DNA from: Myxococcales bacterium
GTDB lineage: Bacteria > Myxococcota > Myxococcia > Myxococcales > Myxococcaceae
DNA length: 64,000 nt
NCBI GenBank assembly: GCA_030696265.1
Contig: JAUYSO010000017.1
Coordinates: 72,368-136,367 of the forward strand
Reading direction: 5' to 3'
A model generated the notes under the pieces. That model ran no database searches and was not told the origin of the DNA. It worked only from the letters and a program-made list of their open reading frames with translations. The translations under genes and the position numbers were made by a program. Each line of letters opens with the position of its first letter. Position 1 is the first letter of the stretch. This document shows, one piece after another, positions 7,171-53,455 of the stretch.

Positions 7171-10113
7171 ATGTCGGATGCGGTGACGTTACTCGAGGCG
7201 GTGCGCGGAGAAGCCAAGCCAGGCGTCTGGTCGAACGGCGTGAAGCTCGCGCGCGCGGGCGCCGTGGTGCAGGAGTCGACCGATGGCACCGAGATCGTCC
7301 TGCGCGTGAAGGCAGGCGGCCGGCCAGTGCCCTGGACGGTGGTGCTCACGCCGAAGGAGTCATCGTGGGAGTGCAACTGCCCGGCGCCGGTCGACCCCTG
7401 CGAGCACTCGGTCGCTGCGGCCATCACGCTCAAAGAAGCGGCCGAGTCGGGCACCACGCTGGCGTCCGTCGAGAGCCGGTACTCGCGCGTCGTCTACCGC
7501 ATCGTGCGCGTCGAGAGCGGGCTGCAGGTTCAGCGCGCCGTGGTGACGCCCGAGGGCGTCGAGACGCCGCTCGACTCACTCGCCGCGGCGCTCGCGAACC
7601 CGGCCACCGCGAAACAGCTGCAGGTGGAGCAGCACGACCTTCAGGCCGACCGGCTGCTCGAGAAGAAGACACGGCTCGCGTTGCCGCCCGAGCGGGTCGA
7701 CGCAGTGCTCGGCGTGTTGCAGCCCAGCCGCACCGTGCTGCTCGATGGGCGGCCGGTGGCCATCGCCTCGGAGCTGCTGCTCCCACGCGTGACGGTGAAG
7801 GACGACGCCGACAGCATCGTGGTGACGGTCGCGAAGGACTCACGCGTGACCGAAGTGCTCGGGGCCGGCGTCGCCGTCGCGGGTGACACGCTCTTCCGCC
7901 TCGGGGAGCAGTCCTTCACCGGCGCGTGGCTCGAGAAGCTGCCGGTGGTGAAGACGTTCTCGGCGGCGCAGGCCGGTGAGGTGAGCGCGACCGTGGTGCC
8001 GGAGCTCGCGCGCCGCTTCTCCGTCGAGGTCACGAGCTCGCGGTTGCCACGGGTCGACGCGCGCCTCGAGCCGCGCGTCGTGCTCGAGGTCAATCAGCTG
8101 GAGCAGGGCCTCTCGGTGCTCCCGACGCTCGTCTACGGCGCGCCGCCGACGGTGCGCATCGACGCAGGCCGCATGGTGTACTTGCGGGGGCCGGTGCCGG
8201 TTCGTGACGAAGCGCAGGAGCAGCGGCTGCTTCATCACCTGCGCGACACGCTGAACCTCGTGCCTGGTCGGCGCATGACGGTGAACGGTCCCGAAGCCAT
8301 TCGGTTCGCCGACTCGCTGCGAAAGTGGCGCGGCGGGTTGACGGGCGATGCGGCGCGCAAGCTGAGCCCCGACCTGAAGCTCATTCCCCGCATGAAGCTC
8401 GACGACCGGACCGGCGCGGGCGTGCCGTCGGTCGCGTTCTCCTTCGACTTCGAGCTGGTGGGTGGCACGGCCGGAATGCCGACGCAGGTCGACGGCGCCG
8501 CGGTGCTGCGGGCTTGGGAAGATGGTTACGGGCTGGTGCCCATCGAAGGTGGTGGCTGGGCGCAGCTGCCCTCTGAGTTCCTCGAAGCGCAGGGCGCCCG
8601 CATCGCTGCGCTGCTCGCCGCGAAGCAGGAGAACGGAACGCTCGCCAACCACGCGCTCCCCCGCCTCGCCGAGCTCTGCGACTCGCTCGAGCAGCCGACG
8701 CCGCTGGGCCTCGACAGACTCAAGCCGCTGGCCGACGGGTTCGAGTCGCTGCCTGAGCCCACGCTCCCCGCCGACCTCACCGCGACGCTGCGGCCGTACC
8801 AGGTGCAGGGCGTGGCGTGGCTCCAGTTCCTTCAGCGCGCGGGCCTGGGTGGCGTGCTGGCCGACGACATGGGCCTGGGCAAGACGCTGCAGACGGCGTG
8901 CGTGCTGGGGAAGAAGTCGCTGGTGGTGTGCCCGACGAGCGTGTTGCCGACGTGGCTCGCCGAGCTCAAGCGCTTCAGGCCCTCGCTCACCGTCAACGCG
9001 TACCATGGGCCCAACCGCGCCCTCGACGACGTCGACGTGACGGTGACGACGTACGCGATTCTGCGGCTCGACCTCGTGCAGCTGCAGGCGCGCGAGTGGA
9101 GCGCGCTGGTGCTCGACGAAGCGCAGAACATCAAGAACCCCGAGAGCCAGGCGGCGAAGGCATCGTTCGCGCTGAAGGCTCCGTTCCGGCTCGCGCTGTC
9201 GGGAACGCCCGTCGAGAACCGCCTCGACGAACTCTGGAGCCTGATGCACTTCAGCAACCAGGGTCTGCTCGGTGGCCGGCGTCAGTTCGACGAGACGCTC
9301 GCGCGCCCCATCGCCGAGGGGAACGCCACCGCGAGGCTCGAGTTGAGGAAGCGGCTCAAGCCGTTCGTCCTGCGCCGGTTGAAAAAAGACGTCGCGAAGG
9401 ATCTGCCGCCGCGCACCGAGGTGGTGCGCACGGTGACGCTCGATGAACGCGAACGCGCCACGTACGACGCCATCTTCGCTGCCACGAAGGATGAGGTGGT
9501 GAAGCTGCTCGGCCAGGGCGGGAGCGTGCTCAAGGCGCTCGAGGCGCTGCTGCGGTTGCGTCAGGCCGCGTGTCACCCGGCGCTGATTCCAGGCCAGCTG
9601 GCGAAGACCTCGTCGAAGGTGCAGACGCTCGTCGATGCGCTCGCGACGGCCGTGGCCGATGGGCACAAGGCGCTCGTGTTCTCGCAGTGGACGAAGCTGC
9701 TCGACCTCATCGAGCCCGAGCTGACCGCGGCGGGCGTGCGCTTCTCGAGGCTCGACGGCTCGACCCCGAATCGCGGCGAGGTGACGGCCGAGTTCCAGAC
9801 GGAGGCGGGCCCGCCGGTGATGCTCATCTCCCTGAAGGCGGGCGGCACCGGCCTCACACTCACGGCGGCGGATCACGTCTTCCTCGTCGACCCGTGGTGG
9901 AACCCGGCCGTCGAAGCCCAGGCCGCCGACCGGGCGCACCGCATCGGGCAGGACAAGCCGGTGTTCGTGTATCGCCTCGTCTCGCAGGGAACGGTCGAGG
10001 AGCGCATCCTCACGTTGCAGGACAAGAAGCGTGCGCTGTTCGAAGCAGCGCTCGGAGATGGACAGTCGGCCGGCGCGCTGACGAAGGACGACCTGCTGGA
10101 GTTGTTCGCGTAG
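7171..10113 (+). CDS. SNF2-family (RapA/HepA-like) DEAD/H helicase with an N-terminal SWIM zinc finger
   Basis: SWIM CxCx(n)CxH ([17 protein letters not shown]). Helicase motif I DDMGLGKT, motif [13 protein letters not shown], and a C-terminal helicase domain ([41 protein letters not shown]). 980 aa. Confidence 0.9.
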
Positions 10114-20399: not shown

Positions 20400-22031
20400 T
20401 CACTCGTACGGGTTCGTCTCGTCGACGGTCAGCTTGCCGCCCTTCTTCCCTCCAAGCGGAGGAGGTGGCCTCGTCTTCGGGTACCGCGGCTCCTGGGTCG
20501 TCGGCGCGACGGCGGCGACGAGGCGGGTCAACGTCACGCGCACGTCGCGGGGCTCGGTGAAGGCGAGCTGCATCGAGCGCGGCTCGAACCCCTGAGCGGT
20601 CGTCACCACCGACGCGCCGCTGCCCTTCTCCCGCGTGAGCGTGACGGGGTTGCCCTCGAGCTTCTCGCCGTCGACCTCGAAGCGGGCGCTCGCAGGTTCG
20701 GCCGTCAGCGTCAGTACGACAGGCGTCGGAATGGCGTTCACCGGCTCTTCTGGAGGCGCCACCGTCTGAGCCTTCGTCGGCGGCGTGACGACCACGGGCG
20801 CGGCTGGAGCGTCGGCTGACGTGCCGAGCACGAGGAAGAGGCCTGCGCCGACGATGAGGCCCACCATCGCGATGACGACGGCCGCGGCGAGGCCCGAGCG
20901 ACGCGGCGGCCGCTCCGCGACGGGGTCGAGCGAGGGGGCGGTCGGAGGCGGTGTCCTTGGCGTCTTCGCGGCTGGCCGCTTCGGAGGCGGGCGCGGCGAC
21001 GCGTCATCATCGACCGTCACGTGCGCGGCGGGCATGCGGGTGACCGAGTTCCTTCGGCCGGGAGACGTGGCGGGCAGGCGCGCGGGCCCCGATGGAGGCC
21101 GAGGCGTGCCACCCGACTGGGTTCGCACCGCCGCCTCCTGCGCGAGGTCGAAGAGGCTGGAGAGGTCTCCAGCCTTCACGAGGGCGATGAGTGACTCCTT
21201 CACCTTCGCGGCGTCCTTCGCGCGGCGCTCGGGCTCCTTCACGAGCAGCGCGTCGACGAAGCCACACAGCCGCGTGGGGAGCTCGGGCCGGACCTCGATG
21301 AGCGGCTGGTGCTCCTCTTTCAGGAGCTTCGCGAGCGTCGCGATGTCGCTGTCGGCGTCGTACGGCGCGCGTCCACCGAGCAGCTCGTAGAGCACCGCGC
21401 CCACCGAGTAGATGTCGGCCGAGGGGCCGAGGGTCTTCTCTCCGAGCAGCTGCTCTGGCGCCATGTACTTGGGCGTGCCGACCGCGGTGCCCGAGTGGGT
21501 CAACCCCGTGCTCTGCCCGAAGCGCGAGATGCCGAAGTCGAGGAGCTTCACGAGGCGCTGCGGCTTCGTGCACAGGAAGATGTTCGCAGGCTTGATGTCG
21601 CGGTGAATGACGTTCGCCTGGTGCGCGGCAGCCAGCGCGTCGAGCAGCGGCAGAATGACGCCCACCGCCTGCGCCGGCGCGAAGATGCCGTGCTTCTTGA
21701 AGACGACCTTCAGCGTCGCACCTTCGAGGTGCTCCATGACGATGAAGGGCTCGCCGTCTTCCGTCTCGCCCATGTCGAGCACGTCGACGATGCCGGGGTG
21801 GTTGATGACGGCCGCCGCGCGCGCCTCGAGCGAGAAGCGCGCCTTGATGTCGTCACGATCGGCGAGGTCTGCGACGAGCACCTTGATGGCGACGCGCCGG
21901 CCGATGGACTGGTTGGTCGCTGAATACACCGCGCCCATGCCGCCTTTGCCGAGCACGCCGTCGATCAGGTACTTGCCGGCAAACGTGGTGCCGGGCTCGA
22001 GGACAGTCACAGGCCCGTCAGTGTACCCCAA
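20400..22031 (-). CDS. Eukaryotic-type Ser/Thr protein kinase with a Pro-rich linker, TM helix and C-terminal extracytoplasmic domain
   Basis: Subdomain I GKGGMGAVY, K in VAIK, catalytic loop HRDIKPANIFL, DFG, GTPKYMAPEQ. The following Pro-rich segment and TM helix (LAAAVVIAMVGLIVGAGLFLVLG) are present. Lies 28 nt upstream of the PEGA/TPR gene. Confidence 0.9.
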   Translation of the reverse strand: MGYTDGPVTVLEPGTTFAGKYLIDGVLGKGGMGAVYSATNQSIGRRVAIKVLVADLADRDDIKARFSLEARAAAVINHPGIVDVLDMGETEDGEPFIVMEHLEGATLKVVFKKHGIFAPAQAVGVILPLLDALAAAHQANVIHRDIKPANIFLCTKPQRLVKLLDFGISRFGQSTGLTHSGTAVGTPKYMAPEQLLGEKTLGPSADIYSVGAVLYELLGGRAPYDADSDIATLAKLLKEEHQPLIEVRPELPTRLCGFVDALLVKEPERRAKDAAKVKESLIALVKAGDLSSLFDLAQEAAVRTQSGGTPRPPSGPARLPATSPGRRNSVTRMPAAHVTVDDDASPRPPPKRPAAKTPRTPPPTAPSLDPVAERPPRRSGLAAAVVIAMVGLIVGAGLFLVLGTSADAPAAPVVVTPPTKAQTVAPPEEPVNAIPTPVVLTLTAEPASARFEVDGEKLEGNPVTLTREKGSGASVVTTAQGFEPRSMQLAFTEPRDVRVTLTRLVAAVAPTTQEPRYPKTRPPPPLGGKKGGKLTVDETNPYE

Positions 22032-40296: not shown

Positions 40297-40544
40297 AGGG
40301 ATCTCGTTCGCGTCGGCCAGGGGGCCGCGCGTGATGGTGGAAAGTCTGCTGAACGCGGAGAGGTCGGTCGACGGGCGCGCAGGCGCCTGGACTCGAGGTG
40401 AAGGACGGTCGTCGGTCACCCGAGTGCGCGGAACTTCAGCGCGCCCGGACCAGAGCTTCGAGCAGCACCAGGCTGCGCTGCGAGCTGACGACGAGCGGAG
40501 GCATGGTCAGCGTGACGTCCAAGTCATCGAAGGCTGACGACACC

Positions 40545-42557
40545 TCAACCCGCGTCGGGCAGCACGAGTTCGTCGGGCGCACCACCGTCACCACTCTCGG
40601 CTTCGATGACTGCGCCGCCATCGAAGTCGAACGTCTCCACGTCCGGCTCGACGGTCTCTTCGCGCGGCACATGGGGCGCGGCAGCGCTCAACGGCAGACA
40701 CGTCCACGGCTCGAAGAGCGTCGCCTTGCGGCTCAGCTGCAGCCCCGCCTGGAAACACAGCCGCCGCCGTTGAATGAGCTCGTTCTCTCGCCACGAGACG
40801 TCACCGTTGCGAACCCACGTGCGGTCGTACTCGTCGAGCGAGCTCTCGGGCCCCGGCCGATAGCGGAGCACGAGCCTCGGGTACTCCTCTGCTGGCTCGG
40901 CTGACACCTCGATGCCGTACCACTCGTCTTGCGTCACCAGCTTCGTCTGCGGCCGCGGGAGCGCATCGACCAGCGCGCGTCGTGCCTCGAGCGTCTTCTC
41001 GACCGCCGCGAAGAAGTCGTCGGCGACGAGCGACAGGTCCATGCCCGCCAGCTGGAACGTCGCCTGCCACAACGCCGCACCGCCCAGCTTCGGCGGCAGC
41101 TGCTCGTCCCCGAACGCGCGGAGCAGCTTGTGAATCGACGTGGGCCCGTACCGCTTCACCATCGCGTCGATGAGCCCGCGGCCGATGACGTACTTGAGGT
41201 CGTCGTCCCCGTTCCGAGTGAAGGTCTCGAAGTCGATGATGTCGGTGAGGTGCAGCTCGTTTCGGTCGAGGAGCGCCGCGAGCACCAGCTGCTCCTCGTC
41301 GGGGTGCGTGAGGAAGTGGCCTTCGACCCACGACGCCAGGCCCTCGTCGAGCACCCGCGCGTTCGACCAGCGCCTGAAGCCCTCTTCTCCGATGAGCCGG
41401 CGGGCGACGACGTGGCTGGTCTCGTGCGCCAACGTCGCGACGGCTTCGTCATCGGCGCGCATGCGGATGCGGTCCATGAAGGCGGTGCCCACGGTGTTCC
41501 GCATCGAGCCCGAGAGGTCGACGAGAATGGGCGTGCCACCGTCGGCGCCGAGCAGCTCGCTCACCTGCACGAACGTCGCGTCAGCCTTCTCGGCGAGCTC
41601 GAGCGCGGCCTTCGACTCGATGCTCGGGTAGCTGAACTCGTAGTGCGCGGTGGTGGTGCTTGCCGGGGCCGACTCGGGGACGTTCTCGAGGTCGGGCTCG
41701 TTCGACGTCGCGCTGCCGCCCGAGTCCGTCTTCCACCAGAGCGCGAGCGCCCAGACGATGGCGCCGAGGGTCAGCAAGGTGACGAGGGCTCCGACGACGG
41801 GCCGGTTCACGGTGATGGAGCGGCTGCGGCCCGCGCGAACGAACAGGCCCCACGAGACGAGCGTGCACGCCGTCGCGATCGCCGCCTGGGCGCCGATGAC
41901 CTCGAGCTCGTAGTTCCACCTGACGCCCTCGACGCCCGACTCCACCAGCCGCAGCGGGTCGAGCATGGCCAGCCGCGGCACGAAGTGAATGAGCCGCTGC
42001 AGGCCCGCCGCGACGACGCCGACCAGCATCCACGTGAGGCTCCGCGCGAAGCCCAGCAGCGTGCCAGCCGCCAGGAACGTGGCCATCAACTGCAGCTGCA
42101 TGAGGAACGCACCCAGCAGGATGTTCCAGTGAAACGGCGCATCGAGGCTGCCTCGCGCGAAGGCGTGCTCGAAGACGGCCCAGCCGAGCTGAAAGAACGG
42201 AAACGCCGACAGCACCAGCATCGCGGCCAGCAGCTTCACGAAGAAGACGCGGCTGCGCGTCACCGGCAACGCATCGAGGAACGCGAGCGTGCCTTCATCG
42301 CGCTCCTTCACCGAGACGCCAGTGCCGAGCGCCAGCGCCACGATGCCGAAGATGAGCGGCAGCGGCATCGACGCGACAGAGGAGAACGTCTCCGCCAGCG
42401 AGCGGAACGCAGACTCGGTCACCACGACGTCGAACACCGTCGCGCCCATCAGGACGACGGCGAAGACGAGGTACGGCCGCAGCGCTCGGAGCTCCTTGAG
42501 GAGCAGCGTCTTCGTCACGGGAGCACCCGCCACGACTGCAGCACGCGCGCGCTGCAC
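40545..42557 (-). CDS. ABC-2-type exporter permease fused to a periplasmic HExxH (zincin-like) domain
   Basis: N-terminal about 270 aa with 6 TM helices, a seventh TM, then a large soluble domain containing HETSH (AHETSHVVARR) with a downstream Glu (DEGLASWVEGHF). 670 aa. Confidence 0.7.
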   Translation of the reverse strand: MQRARAAVVAGAPVTKTLLLKELRALRPYLVFAVVLMGATVFDVVVTESAFRSLAETFSSVASMPLPLIFGIVALALGTGVSVKERDEGTLAFLDALPVTRSRVFFVKLLAAMLVLSAFPFFQLGWAVFEHAFARGSLDAPFHWNILLGAFLMQLQLMATFLAAGTLLGFARSLTWMLVGVVAAGLQRLIHFVPRLAMLDPLRLVESGVEGVRWNYELEVIGAQAAIATACTLVSWGLFVRAGRSRSITVNRPVVGALVTLLTLGAIVWALALWWKTDSGGSATSNEPDLENVPESAPASTTTAHYEFSYPSIESKAALELAEKADATFVQVSELLGADGGTPILVDLSGSMRNTVGTAFMDRIRMRADDEAVATLAHETSHVVARRLIGEEGFRRWSNARVLDEGLASWVEGHFLTHPDEEQLVLAALLDRNELHLTDIIDFETFTRNGDDDLKYVIGRGLIDAMVKRYGPTSIHKLLRAFGDEQLPPKLGGAALWQATFQLAGMDLSLVADDFFAAVEKTLEARRALVDALPRPQTKLVTQDEWYGIEVSAEPAEEYPRLVLRYRPGPESSLDEYDRTWVRNGDVSWRENELIQRRRLCFQAGLQLSRKATLFEPWTCLPLSAAAPHVPREETVEPDVETFDFDGGAVIEAESGDGGAPDELVLPDAG

Positions 42558-44329
42558 TTCAGCTCGGGGTCGTCGACCTCGATGGCCACGAAGAGCCGCT
42601 CGCCAGACGAGAACGTCGACGCCGCCATCGCCTCGCCGCCGCGCGCGTCGACGCGGGCCGCTTCGCTGTCACCGATGCCCTGCTGCCAGGGGCCGGTCGA
42701 CGCCGTGAGCCCGCGCCACCGAGACACCGGCTCACCGTGCTTCGTCAGGGAGAACCTCAGCCGGGTCTGCCCGCCACCTTGCGGCACCAGCTCGACTCCG
42801 CCCTCGTACCCGAGCGAACCACCCGCGTTGCGGCGAGCCGCATCAGCGCGCGCCACCAGCGCTTCGAAGGGCACCTTCTTCTCAGCGAGCATCGCGACGA
42901 GCTTCTTCTCGAAGAGCATGTCTCGCAGGTCGCGGTGCGGCTTCACGAAGGTGCTCCGGGCCAGCTCGATGACCTGCGCCTCGCCGAGTTCGTCGATGAG
43001 CGCGTCGACCAGGGTGAAGCTGATGCCCATGCCGAAGCAGTCTCCCGCCGCTTCGAACGTCTCGTTCCATCGCTGCACCGACTCGACCGTCAGCCCGATG
43101 GGCGAGGCCGCCGCGCGCTTCCTCAGCAGCGCACGAGCGTCGGCATCTCCGCGCACCGTCCAGTACGAGGCGAAGCCGTCGAGCAGCCAGTGCCGGTCCT
43201 CCTCCAGCGCCCGCGACGCCGTCACGTCGCCGACGATGGAGTGGAGGATGCGGTAGCGCAGGTTGATGGCGTCGAAGCGCGGGTCGGCGAGGTTCGCGCG
43301 GTAGACGATGCCGTCCTTCTCTCCCAGCGGCACGCGGAGCATCACGTCGGGGTCGAGCCCTCGCTGCGACACCACGTAGACGCCGGCCAGCTTCGGGTAC
43401 TGCATCGCCTGCACGAAGGTGACGACGTCGACGGCCATCGACTCGACCAGCGCCTCCGCCACCTCGTCGCTCACGCCGTCTCCGGGCAACACGCCGATGG
43501 GCCCCACGGGAGAGTCCTTCGGCGTCACCGACTCGAGCGCGAACGCGGGCCGGTCTCGATGCCGCGTCAGCACGCTGAAGAGCATGAAGCCGACGAGCAC
43601 CACGCTGAACGAGAGGATTCGCTCGCGTGACGTCATGCGGCCCGAGAGCGTCGCGGCGATGCTGCCCTCGCCGGCCGTCGCGAGCAGCAGCCCCAGCCCC
43701 AGGCCCAGCGCCGTGATGACGAGACAGGCGACGACGTCGATGGTGGCGGGCCACGCGTTCGCGACGGCGAGGGCTTCGGAGACGATGTGGAACGGCGGCG
43801 TCTCCATCACCTGTACCTGACCGACCTCGTCGAGCGCGTAGAGGAGCAACCCGAAGACGACCCAGAAGAGCAGCCGGTAACGCCCGAGCAGGCCCGCGAC
43901 GAAGCACGTCGACCAGAACGTGGTGAGCCACAGCAGCGCAGGCACCAGCGCGTGGAGCGCGTCTTCGAACGGCACTGGCAGCGTGCGCGCCTGCCACCAC
44001 CACGTCGCGCCCCAGGCAGACGCGGCCGCGAGCGACACCCAGCCCCACCCGAAGAGCCACTTCGCCAGCGCGACGCGTAGCCGGCTGATGGGCAGCACCT
44101 CGAGGAACAGCTGCGTCTTGCCGGTGTACTCGCGCACCACGAGGCGGTTGCCGGCGACGAGCGCCGCGACGAGGCCGTAGGTGAGGAGGAAGTCCTTCAG
44201 CGCCGAGAAGCGGCCGCCCTCTTCGTCACCGCGGTTGAGCGACACGGCGAGGCCCAAGCCGAAGAGGACGAAGAGCACGGAGAGGACCCAGCCGTGCTCA
44301 CGCAACTCCTTGAGGACGATGCGTCTCAT
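42515..44329 (-). CDS. ABC-2-type exporter permease paralog with a degenerate zincin-like domain
   Basis: Start at the internal ATG at 44329 (MRRIVLKELREHGWVLSVLFVLFG). Same architecture as 40545..42557, but the HExxH position reads ILHSIVGD. 604 aa. Confidence 0.65.
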   Translation of the reverse strand: MRRIVLKELREHGWVLSVLFVLFGLGLAVSLNRGDEEGGRFSALKDFLLTYGLVAALVAGNRLVVREYTGKTQLFLEVLPISRLRVALAKWLFGWGWVSLAAASAWGATWWWQARTLPVPFEDALHALVPALLWLTTFWSTCFVAGLLGRYRLLFWVVFGLLLYALDEVGQVQVMETPPFHIVSEALAVANAWPATIDVVACLVITALGLGLGLLLATAGEGSIAATLSGRMTSRERILSFSVVLVGFMLFSVLTRHRDRPAFALESVTPKDSPVGPIGVLPGDGVSDEVAEALVESMAVDVVTFVQAMQYPKLAGVYVVSQRGLDPDVMLRVPLGEKDGIVYRANLADPRFDAINLRYRILHSIVGDVTASRALEEDRHWLLDGFASYWTVRGDADARALLRKRAAASPIGLTVESVQRWNETFEAAGDCFGMGISFTLVDALIDELGEAQVIELARSTFVKPHRDLRDMLFEKKLVAMLAEKKVPFEALVARADAARRNAGGSLGYEGGVELVPQGGGQTRLRFSLTKHGEPVSRWRGLTASTGPWQQGIGDSEAARVDARGGEAMAASTFSSGERLFVAIEVDDPELKCSARVLQSWRVLP

Positions 44330-45186
44330 GCCGCAGTGGCGAGCGCGTCGGTGCGTGCGAAGGCGAGGAAGACGTCTTCGAGGCTGAGCGGCTCGATGAC
44401 GGTGCCCTCGGGGAAGAGTGTGGCGCTCCAGACTTCCGGCGTCGCGCGCCAGACGTCTCCACGCACCACCTCGAAGCCTGGCGGGAGCTCGACCAACGGC
44501 TCGGGCGGGCGCACCCGCTTCACCGACTCGAGCAGCCACGGCACCTCACCCTCGATGCGCATCTTGCCCGACTGGATGATGCCGACGCGGTGGGCCACCT
44601 GCTGCACCTCGTCGACGAGGTGCGAGGACAGGAAGGCGGTGCAGCCGCGCTCCTTCACGATGGTGGAGACGAGGTCGTTGAACTCGCGGCGCGCGACGGG
44701 GTCGAGGCCGGTGGTGGGCTCGTCGAGCAGCAGCAGGTCAGGCCGTGGCGCCAGCGCGAGCGCGAGGCCCAGCTTGGTGCGCGTGCCTCCGGAGAGCTCC
44801 TGCGCGCGTTTGTCGAGCGAGACGTCGAGCAGCTTCGCGAGCCGCTCGAACTCGGGCTGGTCCCACGTCGGGTAGAAGCCCTTCACGAAGCGGCCGAGCT
44901 CTCGGCCCGTCATCCACGGGTAGAAGTGCTGCTCCTGCGAGACCGAGCCGATGCGGCGCTTCAGCTCGACGGGCACCTTCTTCAGCTGCTGGCCGAGCAG
45001 CTCGACCGTTCCCGCGTCGGCGTGCAGCACCCCGGTGAGGATGCGCAGCGTCGTCGTCTTGCCCGCGCCGTTGCGGCCCAGGAAGCCGTAGATTTCGCCC
45101 TGCCGTACCGCGAGCGAGAGTCCGTCGAGGGCGATGGCTTTTCCAAACCGTCGCCGTACGTCGGTCAGCCTCAATGCGTCAGTCAC
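44326..45186 (-). CDS. ABC transporter ATP-binding protein
   Basis: Walker A GRNGAGKTT, signature LSGGTRTKL, Walker B LLLLDEPTTGLD. Overlaps the following permease start by 4 nt. Confidence 0.9.
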   Translation of the reverse strand: MTDALRLTDVRRRFGKAIALDGLSLAVRQGEIYGFLGRNGAGKTTTLRILTGVLHADAGTVELLGQQLKKVPVELKRRIGSVSQEQHFYPWMTGRELGRFVKGFYPTWDQPEFERLAKLLDVSLDKRAQELSGGTRTKLGLALALAPRPDLLLLDEPTTGLDPVARREFNDLVSTIVKERGCTAFLSSHLVDEVQQVAHRVGIIQSGKMRIEGEVPWLLESVKRVRPPEPLVELPPGFEVVRGDVWRATPEVWSATLFPEGTVIEPLSLEDVFLAFARTDALATAA

Positions 45187-45215: not shown

Positions 45216-46229
45216 TCACCACTGCTCGGGCGTCGGCTCCTTCGCGGCTTTTCGCTCGATCGTGCTGTCTCGGTACGCCGAGCTGCGAGCGCGCATCATC
45301 GCGCCGAGGGGCCGGAACTCGACGGGCGCGTGCCACGGGTCGAACGAGAAAGACTCGACGAGCGCCGACAGCGCCCTGCCCTGCTCGCTCCCCGGGTCCT
45401 GCACCGGCACGGAGACGTCGGCGATGTCGGTCCACGGCGATTCCCACACCTTCGTCGGATCTTCGATGGGCGTCTGCGCTTCGCTCTCGAACGGCTGAAT
45501 GCGCAGCGCCCACTTCAGCGGAGCGGCCGTCACACGCGCGCGCACGTCATCGGCGAAGCGCGTGTGCTCGTTCGTCACCGGCGTCGCAGGCTTCGGAGGA
45601 TTCACCGGCACGAAGCCGTACTTCACCGCCGCGTCGCCCCAGCGAATCGGGAGCACGGAGTAGAACGGCTGCTCGACCATCGAGTCGACGCGCTCGGCCA
45701 TGCCCTTCTGCAGCACGCCGAGCACTCGAAAGGCATCGAGCCCGAGCGTTCCCAGAATGCGGGGCAAGGCGAGCAGCTTCGGCCCGTTCGCGGCGCGCAC
45801 CACGCCGACGAAGTCTCCCGGCGTCTTGAACGGCATCGACTGCGTGAGGATGCCGAGGAAGTCCATCGTGGGCGCGGCCTCCATGCCGGGGATGAGCTTG
45901 GTGCCACCCACGCCGGTCATTTTCAGCGCGAGCCCGCGCACGTCGGGCGCCTTGTCGCTCGCGTGCACCGGACTGCCATTCGAGAGCCGCAGCCACGCCT
46001 TGAACGTCGCAGGCGCCGCGAACGGCCCGACGCGCGCCCACTCGGGCAACCCGTCACGCACCGTCACCTCGGCCTTGAGCCCGACGTGCTGCTTCGCGTG
46101 GAGCGCGCGGCTGACGCTCCCGTGCGCCTTCTCTTTGGCGCGCTGCACCTCACGCAGCACGGCAGCGAGGCCGTCGAACAGCGCTCGCTCGTTGGGGGCG
46201 ACGACTTCTTTCCAATCAGTGGCGGGCAT
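45216..46229 (-). CDS. Catalase-related haem protein (small catalase-family/peroxidase-like)
   Basis: Catalase distal-site motif RALHAKQHVG; APDVRGLALK; proximal Tyr region RARSSAYRDS. About 337 aa from the internal ATG at 46229. Confidence 0.7.
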   Translation of the reverse strand: MPATDWKEVVAPNERALFDGLAAVLREVQRAKEKAHGSVSRALHAKQHVGLKAEVTVRDGLPEWARVGPFAAPATFKAWLRLSNGSPVHASDKAPDVRGLALKMTGVGGTKLIPGMEAAPTMDFLGILTQSMPFKTPGDFVGVVRAANGPKLLALPRILGTLGLDAFRVLGVLQKGMAERVDSMVEQPFYSVLPIRWGDAAVKYGFVPVNPPKPATPVTNEHTRFADDVRARVTAAPLKWALRIQPFESEAQTPIEDPTKVWESPWTDIADVSVPVQDPGSEQGRALSALVESFSFDPWHAPVEFRPLGAMMRARSSAYRDSTIERKAAKEPTPEQW

Positions 46230-46308
46230 GCGGCGCCTTCCACACCACCCTCGCCACTCGAGCAAGCCGCTTTCTTGAGCGCGGCCACAGCGTCGCTACC
46301 CTGTGCGC

Positions 46309-46764: not shown

Positions 46765-48186
46765 CTACCTGATGAGCGCGTCGATGGGCACAGGCGACTG
46801 GTTCGAGATGTGCCCGAACGACAGCCCCATCGACTTCAGCAGCGTCGCGTGAACGTCAGGCGGGCGAATCACGTTGCCGCTCGCCGCGTTGAGGGCGCCG
46901 TTCGCGAAGTTCCACTTCGTCACACCCATGCCGGTGTTGGTCGACGCGCCGAAGACGGTGTTGCCCCTGATGCCGGGGCCCGCCACGAGGCAGCTCGAGA
47001 CGAGGTGGTGATCGCGGCCTTCACGCGTGTTGATCATCGGCGTGCGCGAGAACTCGCTGAACACCATCAGGTTGGTGCACTGCCACATGTTCTTCGCGGT
47101 GCCCGGCGCCTGCTTCGTCTTGAGGTACGCGATGAGGCGGCCGAGCGCGTCGAAGCCGGTGCGCAGCGACGCCGGCTGCTGCGTCGACCAGTCGAAGTGG
47201 TCGTCGAGGTCTTCGCCGAGGGTGACGGAGACGACCTGTGAGACGCCGCTCGCGAGCGCCTGCGCCGCGACGGCCGCACGGCCACGAGGCCCGGTGAGGT
47301 CGGATGCGGTGGTGAGGCCGAATGCGCTGAAGAGGTCGGTCAGCGGCGCTGGCGGCGGCAGCACGAAGTTGAACAGCGAGGCCTTCGTGGGGTTCATCAG
47401 GTTGCGGCCGAGCGCGCGCGCGTCTTTGAACGCGTCGGTCAGCCCGTTGGCGTTGAAGCCGTGCGCCGTGCACGAGTCGGGCGTCGTCATCTCGTACGAG
47501 GTGAGCGCGGTGTTCGAGGCGGCGGGCAACGTGGCGCCGGCCTGCGGCTGCATGACGGTGAGCAGGTCGCGGAAGCTGGCGACGCTGACCGCGCTCGCGC
47601 TCGGAGGCAGACCTTCGTTGTAGGTCTCGACGTTCATCGCCAGGTTCGGCACGTCGGTCTGCGCGCCCATCTGCGCGGCGAACGCGGTGTTGAGGCTCGA
47701 GCCCGACGCGACGAGGCCGCGGGGGAACTTGCCGGTGATGAGGTACCGGCGGCCCACCTCGTGGGTCAGCGTGTCCATCTGCATGCCGCGAATGATGGCG
47801 AGGTCGGGCGCGTGCTGGAGGAGCGACTGCGGCACCGCGGGACCGAAGGAGAGGTTGCCGCTCGTCTGAACGCCCGAGCCGCCCGTCGCGGTCAGCACCT
47901 GGGCCACGCCCGTGTCGTCGGCGCCGGCGAGATCGTACGCAGGCTGAATACGCGTCGCCGGTGCGCGGCCGGCGATGACCTGGAACTGCGGGTCGTTCTG
48001 CGGCCGGGGGTCGAGCGCGAGCAGCTGGTCCCACCCGCCCGCGAAGTAGACGACGAGCAGGTACTTCGGGTCGCCGCCCGCCTGCGCGAAGGCCTGGCTG
48101 CCGAGCGGCGACTGCTGAAGGACGAGGCCTCCACCGGCCACGCTGAGGATCTCGAGGAAGTTGCGACGCGAGAGGGAAGGCTTCAT
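46765..48186 (-). CDS. Tat-exported DUF1501-type (sulfatase-like) protein
   Basis: Twin-arginine signal (SRRNFLEILSVAGGGLVL). YFAGGWDQLLALDPRP resembles the DUF1501 GGxSQxDTFDPKP block. 473 aa. Confidence 0.6.
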   Translation of the reverse strand: MKPSLSRRNFLEILSVAGGGLVLQQSPLGSQAFAQAGGDPKYLLVVYFAGGWDQLLALDPRPQNDPQFQVIAGRAPATRIQPAYDLAGADDTGVAQVLTATGGSGVQTSGNLSFGPAVPQSLLQHAPDLAIIRGMQMDTLTHEVGRRYLITGKFPRGLVASGSSLNTAFAAQMGAQTDVPNLAMNVETYNEGLPPSASAVSVASFRDLLTVMQPQAGATLPAASNTALTSYEMTTPDSCTAHGFNANGLTDAFKDARALGRNLMNPTKASLFNFVLPPPAPLTDLFSAFGLTTASDLTGPRGRAAVAAQALASGVSQVVSVTLGEDLDDHFDWSTQQPASLRTGFDALGRLIAYLKTKQAPGTAKNMWQCTNLMVFSEFSRTPMINTREGRDHHLVSSCLVAGPGIRGNTVFGASTNTGMGVTKWNFANGALNAASGNVIRPPDVHATLLKSMGLSFGHISNQSPVPIDALIR

Positions 48187-48205: not shown

Positions 48206-48964
48206 TCAGTAGAGGTGGTACTCAGGAGCCATCAGGAGCGCGACGCACACGGTGCGCCACCCTTCCCTCACGTGCGCGGCGGTCGGCGTCGCAGTGCCGG
48301 CAGCCCCCTTCACGGCGTCGTCGAACAGCTTGCGCAGCGGCGCCAGCGTCGCGTCGTCACCCGCCGCGACCTTCATGCCGTGGAAGCGCAGCTTGAGGTG
48401 CATCAGGTTCTGGTCGATGGCCGTGCGGTTGGTCGCCAGCGTGTCGGTCAACGAGACCGTCTTGTAGAGCACACGCAGGTTGGGGGCCTTCGTCTGGTCG
48501 GCCGTGACGGTGCGGGTGCACGCGTCCTTGGCGGCGTCGTCCATGAACTTCAGGAAGAGCGACGACGGCTCGAGGTTCTCGTCGACGACCGAGATGTAGT
48601 CGGGCTCGCCCAGCGTGCGGCTGCGGCTGGTGAAGCCGTTCGTGTTCCCCACCATCCACGTCGAGCCGCCGAGCGCGATGGTCATCGAGTTCGCGAGCTG
48701 CCGAACCGACAGGCGCTGCGAGCCGGCAGACGCCGGGCCCGTCATCACCATGCCGCCACCAGCCGAGCCACCACCGGCAGCGCCGCCACCCGACGCTCCA
48801 CCACCCGCGCCGCCCCCGAGAATCGCAGGGTGGTCGAACGGCAACGCCGGGCCGTCAGGCGTGATGACGATCGACGGGTCCTTCACCACCGGCGGCGGCT
48901 CCACGGGCGCCTGGGTGCACGCGCCCAACACCACCACCAGACACCCAGCGCTCAAGCGCTTCAT
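48206..48964 (-). CDS. Hypothetical lipoprotein with a Gly-rich linker
   Basis: Start at the internal ATG 48964 (MKRLSAGCLVVVLGACTQ lipobox), poly-Gly linker, 253 aa. The upstream part of the ORF-track entry is Arg/His-rich junk. Confidence 0.55.
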   Translation of the reverse strand: MKRLSAGCLVVVLGACTQAPVEPPPVVKDPSIVITPDGPALPFDHPAILGGGAGGGASGGGAAGGGSAGGGMVMTGPASAGSQRLSVRQLANSMTIALGGSTWMVGNTNGFTSRSRTLGEPDYISVVDENLEPSSLFLKFMDDAAKDACTRTVTADQTKAPNLRVLYKTVSLTDTLATNRTAIDQNLMHLKLRFHGMKVAAGDDATLAPLRKLFDDAVKGAAGTATPTAAHVREGWRTVCVALLMAPEYHLY

Positions 48965-50592
48965 CGGACCCTCCGGTACTGCGGCTGCGTGACGATCTGC
49001 TCGACGAGCCACGGCAGGCTGTAGTTGTTCGTCTTGAAGCCGGCAGAGAGCGACTCGAGCGTCGCGAGCTCGTCGGTCGCGGCTCCCGAGATGCGCATGT
49101 CGCGCTTCATGAGGCTCGTCCACGCGCGCTTCACGGTGCAGCGGGCGAAGGTGCCGTTGGCGAGCGACTCGTTGACGCGCTTGCGAGGGCCGCCGGCGAG
49201 CGCGCTGGTGATGTCGGGGTGCTGCGCATCGGCGAACTGGTACGGCAGCAGCGCGCCCTTGTTGTCGGCGTCGTTGCTCGTCACGTAGAAGCGGTTGCAG
49301 ATGGCGTTGGAGCTGCCCACGCAGTTGGTCCGCATGCGGGGCCACGCGGTGAGGTCGGTCAGCAGCGAGGTGCCGGCCTCGGCGAACTGGCCCCAGTGAC
49401 TCGACAGCGGCTCGAGGCCCCGGTGGCAGCCACGGCACGTGCAGCGCCTCGTCAAGTCGTCGGAGTCGGCCGAGCAGTTGTCGGCGGCCGGCTCTTCGAG
49501 GCGAGACGGCGGCACGTACGACTCACACTCGAAGTCGACGCGGTAGCGGTTGCCACGCGCACGGTTCGTCTGAAAGCGCAGCAGGTAGGCCATCGAGGTC
49601 AACGCACCGGCGTGCAGGTCCGAGCCGCGGTCGACGGTGGTCCACGTCGTGTCCGAGAACGGCTTGGCCACTGCGGGCTCCGTCGGGTCGGGGATCGACC
49701 AGATGCGGTTGACCGACAGGTTCGCGGCGAGGTCGCGCTTCCAGTGCGCGAGCGGGCCGTTGACGGGCACGCTGCGGGTCAGCACCAGGTCGGTGTACGG
49801 CTGGCCGCCGGTCGAGACGCGGTCGACGAGCAGGTTGAGCTGCTCACGCGCCGAGCTCGCGATGACGCTGCGCACCGCAGCCGTCGGCCCGAAGCAGAAC
49901 TTGAGGCCGGCGCCACACCCGCAGGCGATGTTGCCGTTGGTCTCGTAGTGGCCGCACGACAGCGTGCGCGCGGCGGTGCCCGTGCCGATGGTGACGGTCT
50001 CGGTCTCTTGCGCGTCGTAGGCGCAGACCTTGATGGGCGTGGTCGACCAGTACGGCGTCACCATGCGCCAGCCCTCTTGCCGGACCGTGACGGTGCCCAC
50101 CACCGTGGTGCGAATGCCGGCCGGGTCGGGGCGGAAGCCGCCACCGGGCAGGAACATCGTCTGCTGAAAGTCACCGCACTGCAGGCCGTGCGTGGTGTTG
50201 GCGTCGCTGACGCCGCGGAAGGTGCGGCGACGGCCCGTCGAGCTCAACGAGTTCACCTCGGGGGGGTTGCCCGCCGTGGTGAGCTGCGAGTTGACGTTGT
50301 TGAGCGCGAGGTTGCTGATGTTCGGCCAGAACAGCTCTTCGTGGTACCGGCGCATCACCAGGCGGAAGTCGTCGCTCCCGAGGTACGCGCGAATCACCGA
50401 CGCCGGCACTGCGGTCTCGGTCTCGAGGGCCTCGTACTCGGTGACGTCGGGAATGCGGCCGCGCAGGTCGAGCGAGAGGCGGCGCAGCTCCTGGTACTTG
50501 TCGATGGCGCGGGGCTGCTGGCACTCGGCCGCCGTCTGGGCGAACGCGGTGGCCGTCAGCGCCAGCACGAGAGTGAAGACGGCTCGTCGCAT
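48961..50592 (-). CDS. Secreted cysteine-rich protein with a CxxCH motif (putative partner of the DUF1501 protein)
   Basis: Signal peptide (MRRAVFTLVLALTATAFAQ). Cys clusters (CGCGAGLKFC; CTCRGCH). 544 aa. The family assignment (DUF1549/1553/DUF1800-like) could not be made by eye. Confidence 0.55.
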   Translation of the reverse strand: MRRAVFTLVLALTATAFAQTAAECQQPRAIDKYQELRRLSLDLRGRIPDVTEYEALETETAVPASVIRAYLGSDDFRLVMRRYHEELFWPNISNLALNNVNSQLTTAGNPPEVNSLSSTGRRRTFRGVSDANTTHGLQCGDFQQTMFLPGGGFRPDPAGIRTTVVGTVTVRQEGWRMVTPYWSTTPIKVCAYDAQETETVTIGTGTAARTLSCGHYETNGNIACGCGAGLKFCFGPTAAVRSVIASSAREQLNLLVDRVSTGGQPYTDLVLTRSVPVNGPLAHWKRDLAANLSVNRIWSIPDPTEPAVAKPFSDTTWTTVDRGSDLHAGALTSMAYLLRFQTNRARGNRYRVDFECESYVPPSRLEEPAADNCSADSDDLTRRCTCRGCHRGLEPLSSHWGQFAEAGTSLLTDLTAWPRMRTNCVGSSNAICNRFYVTSNDADNKGALLPYQFADAQHPDITSALAGGPRKRVNESLANGTFARCTVKRAWTSLMKRDMRISGAATDELATLESLSAGFKTNNYSLPWLVEQIVTQPQYRRVR

Positions 50593-50621
50593 GGTCCCTC
50601 CGGGAATCGAAACAGTCGTGC

Positions 50622-51845
50622 TCATGGCAACATCCCTCCCTGCACCCACCGCGCGAGCACGGCGTACTGGCTGGGACGCAGCAGGCCCGAGCTCGCAGGA
50701 GGCATCGGCGTGTCGCCGTTCTCGGCGCGGGCCAACGACTGCACGGCCCACTGCTTCGCTTTGGCGTAGGTGGCGAAGTCGATGATGGGTGCGTAGTTCG
50801 CGCCCGAGCGGTGGCAGCTCACACAGTGCGCCGTGAAGAAGGGCTTCACGTCGGCGAAGACGACCGGCTGCTCCTCAGCCGTCGTCGCGAGGCGCTCGAG
50901 CGTCTGCCCATCGAGGGTGAAGATGGCGCCCGCGGTATCTCGCACCACGCCGCTCACCACCGGGGCCGCGACGTCACCGAGCACCTTCACCTCGTCGACC
51001 AGCATCGAGAACAGCTGCCCGTTCGACTGCACCAGCGCGCCGTCACCATCGACGGCGACGTCAGTCACGGCAGCGGCGGCCCCGAAGAGCATCAGCGAGA
51101 CGTCGTTCGACGGCGCCACGCGCACCAGGCCGTCGGTGGTGGCGAAGACGACGTGGCCATCACCCAGGCGCGCGCTCTGCGTCACGGCCCCGAGGCCCTT
51201 CGCGAGCACGGTCACCTTCGGGGCGGCGACCTCGACGAGGTACAGGCGCTCGCCTCGCACGACCACCGCGGTCGACGCGTCACGTCCGACGACGGCCTTC
51301 AGCAGGCCGCTGCCGTTCGGGTCGTCGAGCTCGATGGAGTCGAGCGCGCCACCCGACACCCGCAACAGCGCGGCGTCGGTGCGCACCCACCACGTCTCGG
51401 CGACACCCTCGCCAACGACGTCGATGGCCTTCACCTGCGGCAGCGGCAGCGAATCAGAGATGGGCGAGCGGAGCAGCCGGCCCGCGCGCTCGAGGAACAC
51501 GCCCGTCGACGTCAGCCAGAGCGACGCCGCGCCGCGACGGCCGATGAGGCGCACCGTGCCGAGGGAGTCAGCGCCCATCGGACCGACGGGAACCGGCGTC
51601 ATCGTGGTGCCGGTGCGAACGGCCACGCCGTCGATGGCGACGACCGCGACCTGGCCCGAGACCAGCGACAGCCCCACCGCAGAGACCGACGACATCACCG
51701 TCGACGACATCGGACGCGTGGTGTCGACAGGCGTGACGGTCACCCGCGTCAGCGCGGGCGGCTCGACCGGCGCGGGCGGCGGCATGATGATCTGCCCCGG
51801 CGCGCAGGCCGCAAACACGACGAAGGAGAACAGGAGTGCTCGCAT
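50622..51845 (-). CDS. Lipoprotein with a C-terminal cytochrome-c-like (PSCyt1-type CxxCH...MPP) domain
   Basis: Start at the internal ATG 51845 (MRALLFSFVVFAACAPGQ lipobox). C-terminus FFTAHCVSCHRSGANYAPI...GDTPMPP matches the planctomycete-type cytochrome c domain pattern. 407 aa. Confidence 0.6.
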   Translation of the reverse strand: MRALLFSFVVFAACAPGQIIMPPPAPVEPPALTRVTVTPVDTTRPMSSTVMSSVSAVGLSLVSGQVAVVAIDGVAVRTGTTMTPVPVGPMGADSLGTVRLIGRRGAASLWLTSTGVFLERAGRLLRSPISDSLPLPQVKAIDVVGEGVAETWWVRTDAALLRVSGGALDSIELDDPNGSGLLKAVVGRDASTAVVVRGERLYLVEVAAPKVTVLAKGLGAVTQSARLGDGHVVFATTDGLVRVAPSNDVSLMLFGAAAAVTDVAVDGDGALVQSNGQLFSMLVDEVKVLGDVAAPVVSGVVRDTAGAIFTLDGQTLERLATTAEEQPVVFADVKPFFTAHCVSCHRSGANYAPIIDFATYAKAKQWAVQSLARAENGDTPMPPASSGLLRPSQYAVLARWVQGGMLP

Positions 51846-52030: not shown

Positions 52031-53455
52031 GTGCGCATGGCGGAGCTCGACCTCGACGCGCTGTCCCGGCACCCGGTGGTTCGGAAGCTGACCGAGAAGG
52101 TGAAGGACAGCCTGGGCCTGACGTTCCTGTTCGTCTCTCCGAAGGCGCGGGTCGAGGGCATTCCGTCGGGGCAGTACATGCCGACGAACAACGCGCTGTG
52201 TACGCGCATCTGCACCGACCGGAAGAAGGGCATGAAGGCGTGCCTGTCGGCGGGCACCGCGCTGTTCGCGGCGAAGCGGCTGTCGTCGGGCGACTTCACG
52301 CAGAAGCCCTGTCACATCGGCCTGCAGACCCTCGGAGCGCCCATCGTCGTCGACGGCCAGTTCCTCGGCGTCATCGCCACCTGCGGCTTCATGCGCGCCG
52401 AGCACGTCTTCGAAGAAGAACAGGCCGTCGCCCATCGCGCGGCACGGCAAGGCTGGGCGCCGGGCTTCGACGAGGCGCTCTCGCAGCTCCGTCAGACGCC
52501 ATCACTCAACGTGCGCGAGGTGCGCATCGCCGCCGACCTGATGCAGCTGCTCGTCGAGCAGCTCATTCACTTCTCGCGCTCGAGCGAAGCCGACGCCGAG
52601 GCCTTGCAGCGCGCGTGGCAGGCGCTCGAGGTGTCGTGTCCCGAGTCGCCGCTCATCGGAGACTCCGAGGCGATGCGGGCGGTCGCCGCCGTGGTGGAGC
52701 GCTCTGCCTCCAAGCGCCTCCCGACGCTCATCAGCGGCCCGCAAGGCGCGGGCGCGACGCACCTGTCTCGGCACCTGCACCGCGCTGGAGGTTTTCTGCG
52801 CACGCCCTTCGTCAGCCTCGAGGCGCGCGACGGCGTGACGACCGTGAAGGGGCTCTTGCGCAAGGGCTTCACCGGCACGCTGGTGCTCGAGCACCTCGAG
52901 CGCGCGTCCGCCTCCACCGTCGACGAACTGGTCGAGCTGATGCGCACCAGGCCCGACGTGTTCTGGGTCAGCACCACGCGCGGGCCGCTCGAGCCGAACG
53001 TCGCCGCGGCCGTGGGCGTCGTGCAGGTGACGCTGCCTCCGTTGAGCGCGCGCCCGCAAGACGTGGCGGCGCTGGCCGACTCGCTCATCTCGAAGCTGGG
53101 AACGTCTCTCACCGTCTCGCCCTCGGTGCTTTCGGCGCTCGAGCGGTACGGCTGGCCCGGCAACGTCGCCGAGCTCGAGGCCGTGCTCCGGCGCGCGCTC
53201 GCGCTTGGAGGGCTGTCGCTCGCGCACCTGCCGAGGGAGCTCGCCATTCTCTCGGCCCGCACGCGGCGCCGCGCCGGGTTTCATGACGAGGTGCTGCAGT
53301 TCAAGACCGAGCTGGTCGCCGAGACGCTCCAGCGCACCAACGGCAACGTCAGCCAGGCCGCGCGCGAGCTGGGCCTGCAGCGCACGTATCTGCACCGGCT
53401 GATGAACGAGCTCGGCGTGCACCCGCAGCGTGAAGAGAAGGTCGCTCCGAGCTGA
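52031..53455 (+). CDS. PocR-sensor domain plus degenerate sigma-54-activator-like AAA+ domain plus Fis-type HTH regulator
   Basis: N-terminal PocR-like region (Cys-containing, GLTFLFVSPK...CTRIC). Central domain with atypical Walker A GPQGAGAT and GWPGNVAELE, but no GAFTGA loop. C-terminal HTH (NGNVSQAARELGLQRTYLHRLM). Confidence 0.7.
   Translation: MRMAELDLDALSRHPVVRKLTEKVKDSLGLTFLFVSPKARVEGIPSGQYMPTNNALCTRICTDRKKGMKACLSAGTALFAAKRLSSGDFTQKPCHIGLQTLGAPIVVDGQFLGVIATCGFMRAEHVFEEEQAVAHRAARQGWAPGFDEALSQLRQTPSLNVREVRIAADLMQLLVEQLIHFSRSSEADAEALQRAWQALEVSCPESPLIGDSEAMRAVAAVVERSASKRLPTLISGPQGAGATHLSRHLHRAGGFLRTPFVSLEARDGVTTVKGLLRKGFTGTLVLEHLERASASTVDELVELMRTRPDVFWVSTTRGPLEPNVAAAVGVVQVTLPPLSARPQDVAALADSLISKLGTSLTVSPSVLSALERYGWPGNVAELEAVLRRALALGGLSLAHLPRELAILSARTRRRAGFHDEVLQFKTELVAETLQRTNGNVSQAARELGLQRTYLHRLMNELGVHPQREEKVAPS

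Follow-up and report, generated by a model that had tools for sequence, protein, structure and literature searches.

The stretch of DNA analysed here, hereafter called the window, comprises 64,000 nucleotides (nt) of contig JAUYSO010000017.1 from a Myxococcales bacterium (assembly GCA_030696265.1), with a G+C content of about 69% across its whole length. On its minus strand it carries a module of three genes arranged head to tail, which code for an ATP-binding cassette (ABC) ATPase (44326..45186, 286 amino acids, aa) and for two permeases, designated A (42515..44329, 604 aa) and B (40545..42518, 656 aa). Both permeases begin with seven transmembrane (TM) helices and contain a beta-sandwich, which in permease A follows a pseudo-peptidase domain and in permease B stands between an intact gluzincin peptidase domain and an acidic tail that is disordered. 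An initial annotation of the locus had assigned the ATPase and permease A to these same positions, where the open reading frames (ORFs) are indeed found, and had extended permease B up to 42557. An ORF of that length (670 aa) is present, but the gene most likely starts at the GTG at 42518, 13 codons inside it, since this codon, which opens VTKTLLLKELRALRP as the permease B N-terminus, overlaps the stop of permease A (GTGA), and since permease B homologs are 640-656 aa long and start at the same K-E-L-R motif. The permease A ATG, in turn, overlaps the stop of the ATPase gene (ATGA).

The ATPase matches PF00005 (E 1.6e-29) and, as read from its translation, has intact Walker A (GRNGAGKTT), signature (LSGGTRTKL), Walker B (LLLLDEPT) and H-loop (SSH) motifs, as expected for the cognate ATPase of an ABC-2/type V system. 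The nearest NCBIfam models, DrrA, PmtA, GldA and NodI, all score under their own cut-offs. A promoter scan returned no match.

The putative periplasmic zinc-metallopeptidase domain of permease B maps to 40959..41666 (aa ~285-520). Its HETSH motif, which occurs only once in the protein, lies at 41412..41426 and provides H365, E366 and H369, namely two zinc ligands and the catalytic base (aa 378 in the 670-aa ORF, 365-369 if counted from the GTG). The glutamate further downstream, E392 (41343..41345), is included in the sequence LDEGLA (N/D-E-G-L-A) and is the presumed third zinc ligand, at a spacing of X22 from H369. In addition, an invariant tyrosine, Y443 (41190..41192), is spaced like the Tyr that stabilises the transition state in M1 enzymes, and may share its role. 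The C-terminal beta-sandwich (40683..40955, aa ~522-612, with strands at 524-609 in the AlphaFold2, AF2, model) contains C588 (40755-40757) and C607 (40698-40700), which are invariant wherever this region is present and likely form a periplasmic disulfide.

To follow these residues across the family, orthologs were collected (143 matches for B and 61 for A), of which 34 for B (alignment A1) and 32 for A (alignment A2) were aligned, and loci were scanned using one genome per species, which gave 48 loci. H365, E366, H369, E392 and G393 are invariant in all the 43 B orthologs of the genome loci, the catalytic residues are equally invariant in the 34-sequence B alignment, and Y443 is found in 41 of the 41 B orthologs that have a residue at that position. 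The HExxH motif was not found at the aligned site in any of 45 A orthologs. Given this invariance on one side (43/43 and 34/34) and complete absence on the other, the catalytic motif of permease B is not a chance occurrence, and the intact and degenerate versions of the domain proposed in the initial annotation are a property of the family as a whole.

Scans against Pfam and NCBIfam showed no peptidase model matching either permease of the window at E ≤ 1. When the 34 B members were scanned, only sub-threshold zincin matches were obtained, including M36 and M48; specifically, Peptidase_M1 (PF01433) appeared in 13 of the 34 members (best E 1.2e-3) and Peptidase_MA_2 (PF13485) in six (best E 3.8e-4), the window protein itself giving no match to the latter at E ≤ 10. 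Permease B was rejected as a member of peptidase family M1 on several grounds: PF01433 stays below threshold, the GxMEN motif is missing and its place is taken by a conserved upstream strand, SGSxRNTxGTAF, in the 34-sequence alignment, the spacing is X22 versus the M1 arrangement HExxH-X18-E, and the M1 N-terminal domain is absent, the ectodomain starting directly with the catalytic domain in the AF2 model. Permease B does not belong to M30 (hyicolysin) at the sequence level either. Nevertheless, an HExxH motif followed by a Glu on the next helix, within a thermolysin-like fold, places permease B among the gluzincins (clan MA(E)), in agreement with the zincin-like character originally attributed to HETSH and its downstream Glu. 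The peptidase domain thus fits no modelled family, and represents a gluzincin family outside current protein-family libraries.

A profile of the B ectodomain retrieved 551 cluster representatives among 1.84 billion proteins, and the best 150 of these 551 are nearly all proteins of 600-650 aa carrying the domain at ~285-620, or fragments thereof, which argues that the domain is essentially confined to the permease-fused architecture. Some relatives of B (P0239, P0298, P0313 and P0186) have, after the beta-sandwich, added C-terminal Cys-rich Sel1/TPR-like repeats or an extension of ~330 aa, and these sequences suggest extra periplasmic protein-binding modules in some B lineages.

Permease A has the same build. 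Its periplasmic pseudo-peptidase domain (42824..43507, aa ~275-502) shows a gluzincin fold devoid of catalytic residues and is followed by a C-terminal FN3/Ig-like beta-sandwich (42518..42817, aa ~505-604). A direct BLASTP comparison of A with B was limited to a 126-residue alignment within the TM part (E 5e-6). By contrast, hhalign of the two ortholog profiles aligned 519 columns (probability 99.6%, E 1e-23), spanning the membrane domain, the soluble helical domain and part of the C-terminal beta domain; the profile comparison was therefore required, as BLASTP alone would have wrongly implied unrelated soluble domains. In this register H365, E366, H369 and E392 of B stand opposite H363, S364, D368 and D384 of A, and Y443 faces a Met. 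The sequence ILHSIV of permease A (43232..43249, aa 361-366) accordingly faces HETSH, as the initial annotation had it, with H363 kept, Ser364 in place of the Glu and Asp368 in place of the second His, and the sequence LLDGF (43172..43186, aa 382-386) faces LDEGL, with Asp384 in place of the third-ligand Glu. The latter is part of a motif conserved in the A family, ExxRHWLLDGFxxWW, which maps to the helix equivalent to that of LDEGL in B. Among the 45 A orthologs the catalytic columns vary, with His at the first position in 25, followed by Ser, Ala or Glu, by Asp or Trp and by Asp or Arg. Permease A was consequently rejected as a gluzincin metallopeptidase, the HExxH motif and the downstream Glu being missing, and is described as a pseudo-peptidase that retains the fold.

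Structural comparison extends this picture to both ectodomains, which in their models share the gluzincin catalytic fold, as judged from matches to members of M1, M9, M61 and M4. For each known structure the comparison gave two figures, in columns that bear no label: 14.0 and 12.6 with M1 ERAP1, 13.0 and 11.4 with M1 LTA4H, 12.9 and 12.0 with M1 aminopeptidase N (9cam), 13.0 and 12.7 with the M9 collagenase 7wss, 12.1 and 11.7 with M9 ColT, 10.7 and 9.4 with M61, and 9.3 and 9.6 with M4 thermolysin. The search of the soluble domains against known families, proposed at the outset, gave sub-threshold matches with the sequence models of M1 and MA_2, and the gluzincin fold at the level of structure. 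At phylum distance, permease B is most conserved in its peptidase domain (about 35-52% identity, compared with 27-36% for the TM part), while the pseudo-domain of permease A shows 19-42% identity, yet is retained everywhere; this is the pattern expected for one catalytic and one non-catalytic functional domain. The ectodomain of permease A is an ancient paralog of that of permease B, which has kept the fold and lost every catalytic residue.

The membrane domains of permease A (43562..44329, aa 1-256) and permease B (41721..42518, aa 1-266) each comprise six helices of the type V ABC fold and one additional helix, TM7 (aa ~234-256 in A and 239-266 in B). Seven TM helices per permease were indicated by both hydropathy and the AlphaFold models, instead of the six or so originally proposed, whereas the soluble domain of about 350 aa attributed to each permease is present in both models. 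The latter have a mean predicted local distance difference test score of 85.8 for permease B and 86.9 for permease A, and show an identical layout, in which the seven TM helices are followed by a low-confidence linker, a small beta/alpha subdomain, a helical subdomain and the beta-sandwich. The six-helix core is of the NosY/ABCG-like type V and is superposable on solved members, NosY being the closest solved TM structure; a sequence-profile search of the PDB gave only marginal matches (NosY, E 0.02; M1, E ~1). Permease B scores 33.2 bits with the Pfam model PF12679 (cut-off 27.2) and thus qualifies as an ABC2_membrane protein; permease A of the window is sub-threshold with PF12730 (13.7 bits), and several A orthologs have precomputed PF12679 or PF12730 matches. 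Both permeases also keep, after TM2, the NosY-like cytoplasmic coupling motif E-x4-T-x6-L-P, within the sequences REYxGKTQLFLExLPIxR in A and ERDDGTLAFLDxLPVxR in B. A type VII identity (FtsEX/MacB/LolCDE) was rejected, as the permeases do not show its layout of four TM helices, in which TM1 and TM2 are separated by a large domain in the periplasm.

The added TM7 comes after an arginine-rich loop (RAGRSRSITVNRP in permease B), and the Lys plus Arg residues counted inside and outside the membrane are 13 and 5 for permease B, and 15 and 4 for permease A. The seven helices and this charge bias predict an N-in, C-out topology with both ectodomains in the periplasm, and the invariant Cys pair of B is consistent with an oxidising compartment. 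HETSH is therefore predicted to lie in a periplasmic domain, neither in a TM nor in a cytoplasmic segment. As the soluble domains also align with each other and share a zincin fold, none of the findings named at the outset as refuting the initial interpretation was obtained, and that interpretation is supported. The term exporter is an assignment made from the fold.

The nearest public locus belongs to a Myxococcales metagenome-assembled genome (MAG), with 94-99% protein identity over the module, which places the source organism in or close to the Myxococcaceae. The 48 loci are distributed among Myxococcota MAGs, Gammaproteobacteria (Steroidobacter agaridevorans and many MAGs), Betaproteobacteria (nine Massilia strains or MAGs, plus Herbaspirillum) and Verrucomicrobiota, and nearly all of those with enough flanking sequence show the gene order ATPase-A-B. 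Starting from remote A homologs, the same ATPase-A-B arrangement was reached on a Pirellulaceae contig (Planctomycetota) and in another distant lineage, in which the B partners carry HETTH or HETAH followed by EG[VM]A. All-against-all clustering of the flanking ORFs of the 48 loci revealed no conserved fourth gene, whether substrate, regulator or outer-membrane partner; besides antisense shadow ORFs, only the ATPase, A and B are common to the loci across lineages. The only annotations that these proteins carry at present are 'ABC transporter permease' and 'hypothetical protein', and in the literature we found no study of the family, nor any characterised ABC-2/peptidase fusion.

The immediate neighbours of the module in the window were considered in the same light. 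An EF-G paralog (38314-40419, minus strand), full length (GTP_EFTU, EFG_II-IV, EFG_C) and with an N-terminal extension of ~45 aa, lies downstream of permease B at a distance of 125 nt and in the same orientation, an adjacency restricted to close relatives within the Myxococcaceae. It is followed by a hairpin (38256-38290), the one strong terminator-like structure of the region, and may for this reason be co-transcribed with the transporter. On the upstream side, a 349-aa ORF (45216-46265, minus strand) without Pfam match stops 29 nt short of the ATPase start, in the same orientation, and is kept beside the module only in the closest relatives (L001-L006 and L012). The EF-G paralog, this ORF and an upstream GreA-like gene were rejected as parts of the module, being its neighbours only in close Myxococcaceae relatives. 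Many long antisense shadow ORFs overlap the three genes at 40545-45186 (e.g., 40929-43256, plus strand, 775 aa); they recur in related loci only by mirroring the conserved genes, are typical of DNA with 69% G+C and give no evidence of a gene.

Elsewhere in the window, a 716-aa vault-protein-like gene (31014-33164, plus strand) gives matches to PF11978, the shoulder domain of the Major Vault Protein (E 3.7e-30), and to the vault repeat PF17795, and a gene for a DUF1501 protein (46765-48186, minus strand) is followed by two large ORFs without Pfam match (48206-49438 and 48961-50751, minus strand). Two enhancer-binding-type regulators are also encoded, one with an FHA domain and a sigma-54 interaction domain (4187-5599, plus strand), the other with a PocR sensory domain, an AAA+ lid and a Fis-type helix-turn-helix, for which no Sigma54_activat match is listed (52031-53455, plus strand). 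Together with a Ser/Thr protein kinase (20400-22031, minus strand) and an SNF2-family helicase (7171-10113, plus strand), these regulators make up a typical myxobacterial gene content.

All together, these data probably depict a type V machine, composed of two ATPase subunits, one permease A and one permease B (F2·A·B), by which a peptide is extracted or exported and cut at a single periplasmic site. The strict co-occurrence of A and B, their fixed gene order, the overlapping stop and start codons and the presence of a single ATPase gene suggest an A·B heterodimer sitting on an ATPase homodimer, which would power the membrane part. The TM7 of each permease would carry to the periplasm an ectodomain of ~350 aa, made of a thermolysin-like gluzincin domain and then a beta-sandwich. 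Following ATP binding and hydrolysis, movements of the membrane domains would draw a peptide-like substrate out of the membrane or the cytoplasm, by extraction or export, and pass it to a chamber between the two ectodomains, where it would be cut at the sole active site, that of B. The ectodomain of permease A could serve as a non-catalytic wall or a substrate-binding surface, comparable to the alpha subunit of the mitochondrial processing peptidase. We infer in this scheme the catalytic activity of permease B, what kind of substrate it has and how transport and cleavage are coupled. As its sequence lacks the exopeptidase motif GxMEN, permease B would more probably act as an endopeptidase than as an aminopeptidase.

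Two precedents favour a mechanism in which a peptide is extracted or exported and then cleaved. PmtCD, a structural relative, removes amphipathic peptides from the membrane. Ecs, an ABC-2 transporter, provides a functional link to membrane proteolysis, being needed for intramembrane proteolysis in Bacillus (PMC2996298). Several observations weigh against such a peptide-processing exporter: no peptidase family model reaches threshold, so that catalysis rests on motif, fold and conservation; the H-to-E spacing of 22 residues matches exactly neither M1 nor M4 nor M9; and the clustering of flanking ORFs identified no substrate gene conserved beside the module, hence no hint of the cargo. In addition, NosY may not be a classical exporter, and type V transporters normally need no ectodomain.

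In our view, the main competing explanation, a rather doubtful one, is that the module, like FtsEX or MacB-type systems, transmits force without transporting anything: ATP hydrolysis would change the conformation of the ectodomains and so gate the active site of B against the dead domain of A, and an envelope protein would be cleaved on demand. The periplasm contains no ATP, and a pair of ectodomains on an ABC engine follows the logic of the FtsEX-type regulators; the lack of a conserved exported-substrate gene would then be natural, NosY, the best TM match, operates with a periplasmic partner (NosDFY) and not as a simple pump, and the Sel1-like repeats added to the periplasmic part of some family members are typical protein-protein interaction modules. 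However, the TM fold is that of type V (NosY, ABCG, Wzm, PmtD) instead of the four-helix type VII of FtsX and MacB, and most of the type V members of known function move substrates. A further idea, which we put forward only tentatively, is that of an ATP-powered periplasmic protease, in which the ABC engine would do more than export a cargo and would mechanically feed membrane-embedded or envelope polypeptides into a chamber formed by a live and a dead gluzincin, or gate it.

It is improbable that A and B form instead two separate homodimeric transporters (A2·F2 and B2·F2), which share one ATPase and perform different jobs with no active/pseudo-active pair. Many ABC-2 permeases, such as NosY, Wzm and PmtD, are homodimeric, and the contact between A and B is only deduced. 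Against this stand the adjacency of A and B in a fixed order with overlapping stop and start codons, the lack of an evident role for a homodimer of dead enzymes, and the co-occurrence of A and B in all loci with sufficient flank across at least five phyla, a pattern shared with the obligate heteromers ABCG5/G8 and LptF/G. Less probable still is a metal-binding or metal-delivery function of the B ectodomain, with HExxH...E as a Zn or Cu site and the system acting as a NosFY-like machine for cofactor or metal maturation. NosY is indeed the closest solved TM domain, and the label 'multi-copper enzyme maturation' would point the same way, but this label derives from NosY-like TM similarity only, and no nos or copper-enzyme genes are conserved nearby. 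Moreover, invariance extends beyond the metal ligands to the Tyr and to the Glu of HExxH that acts as the general base, which argues for catalysis over mere metal binding.

Energy-dependent proteolysis is well understood in the cytoplasm and far less clear outside it, where there is no ATP. In the module an ABC motor has a physical connection to a zinc protease of the periplasm, in a fixed active/inactive pair kept across several diderm phyla. If an ATP-powered periplasmic protease were indeed at work here, it would be an extracytoplasmic functional analogue of FtsH and the AAA+ proteases built on a type V ABC transporter, with a possible use in clearing signal-peptide remnants or membrane-inserted antimicrobial peptides. 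The three genes thus offer a compact system for testing the mechanical coupling between ABC transport and extracytoplasmic proteolysis, as well as the contribution of a pseudo-protease, and genetics is feasible, as members are found in cultured Massilia, Herbaspirillum and Steroidobacter strains.

By comparing the module with known systems, both shared and distinct features emerge. The known gluzincins are soluble or secreted, while that of the module is fused to a transporter, has the X22 spacing, lacks GxMEN and matches no hidden Markov model above threshold; sequence identity of its ectodomains to M30 hyicolysin and lugdulysin, M1 aminopeptidases, M9 collagenases and M4 thermolysin amounts to 8-15%. 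The type V transporters NosFY (NosDFY), ABCG2, Wzm-Wzt, PmtCD and CcmAB are without a seventh helix bearing a fused periplasmic peptidase, and NosY, Wzm and PmtD are homodimers. The peptidase-containing ABC transporters (PCATs) resemble the module in concept, as they combine ABC transport and cargo cleavage in one polypeptide. In PCATs, however, an N-terminal cytoplasmic C39 cysteine peptidase on a type IV fold cuts before export, whereas in the module the peptidase is a periplasmic zinc enzyme at the C-terminus of a type V permease, and the cut would come after or during extraction; a PCAT identity was rejected, given the lack of a C39 match, the type V fold, an ATPase encoded as a chain of its own and the C-terminal place of the zinc peptidase. 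The alpha/beta mitochondrial processing peptidase (M16) likewise retains a dead paralog as an obligatory partner but, unlike the module, has an inverzincin fold, is soluble and is associated with no transporter.

The closest described architecture is that of TCDB 3.A.1.145, an uncharacterised single-chain ABC-2 permease with a C-terminal M1 zinc aminopeptidase, exemplified by Q1D520 of M. xanthus (1200 aa, 13 TM segments; PMC3924187). Both occur in myxobacteria, join an ABC-2 domain to a C-terminal HExxH zinc peptidase and bear the 'multi-copper enzyme maturation' label through TM similarity. By the description of 3.A.1.145, the module differs in having two chains of seven TM segments, each with an ectodomain, instead of one chain of ~13, in its non-M1 gluzincin ectodomain (no Pfam match above threshold, no GxMEN, no M1 N-terminal domain) and in pairing an active domain with a conserved pseudo-enzyme, and was consequently not assigned to 3.A.1.145, which is defined by a single chain of ~13 TM segments with an M1 domain. 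The coupling of proteolysis to an ABC-2 exporter, considered unusual in the initial annotation, is therefore already known as an architecture (PMC3924187).

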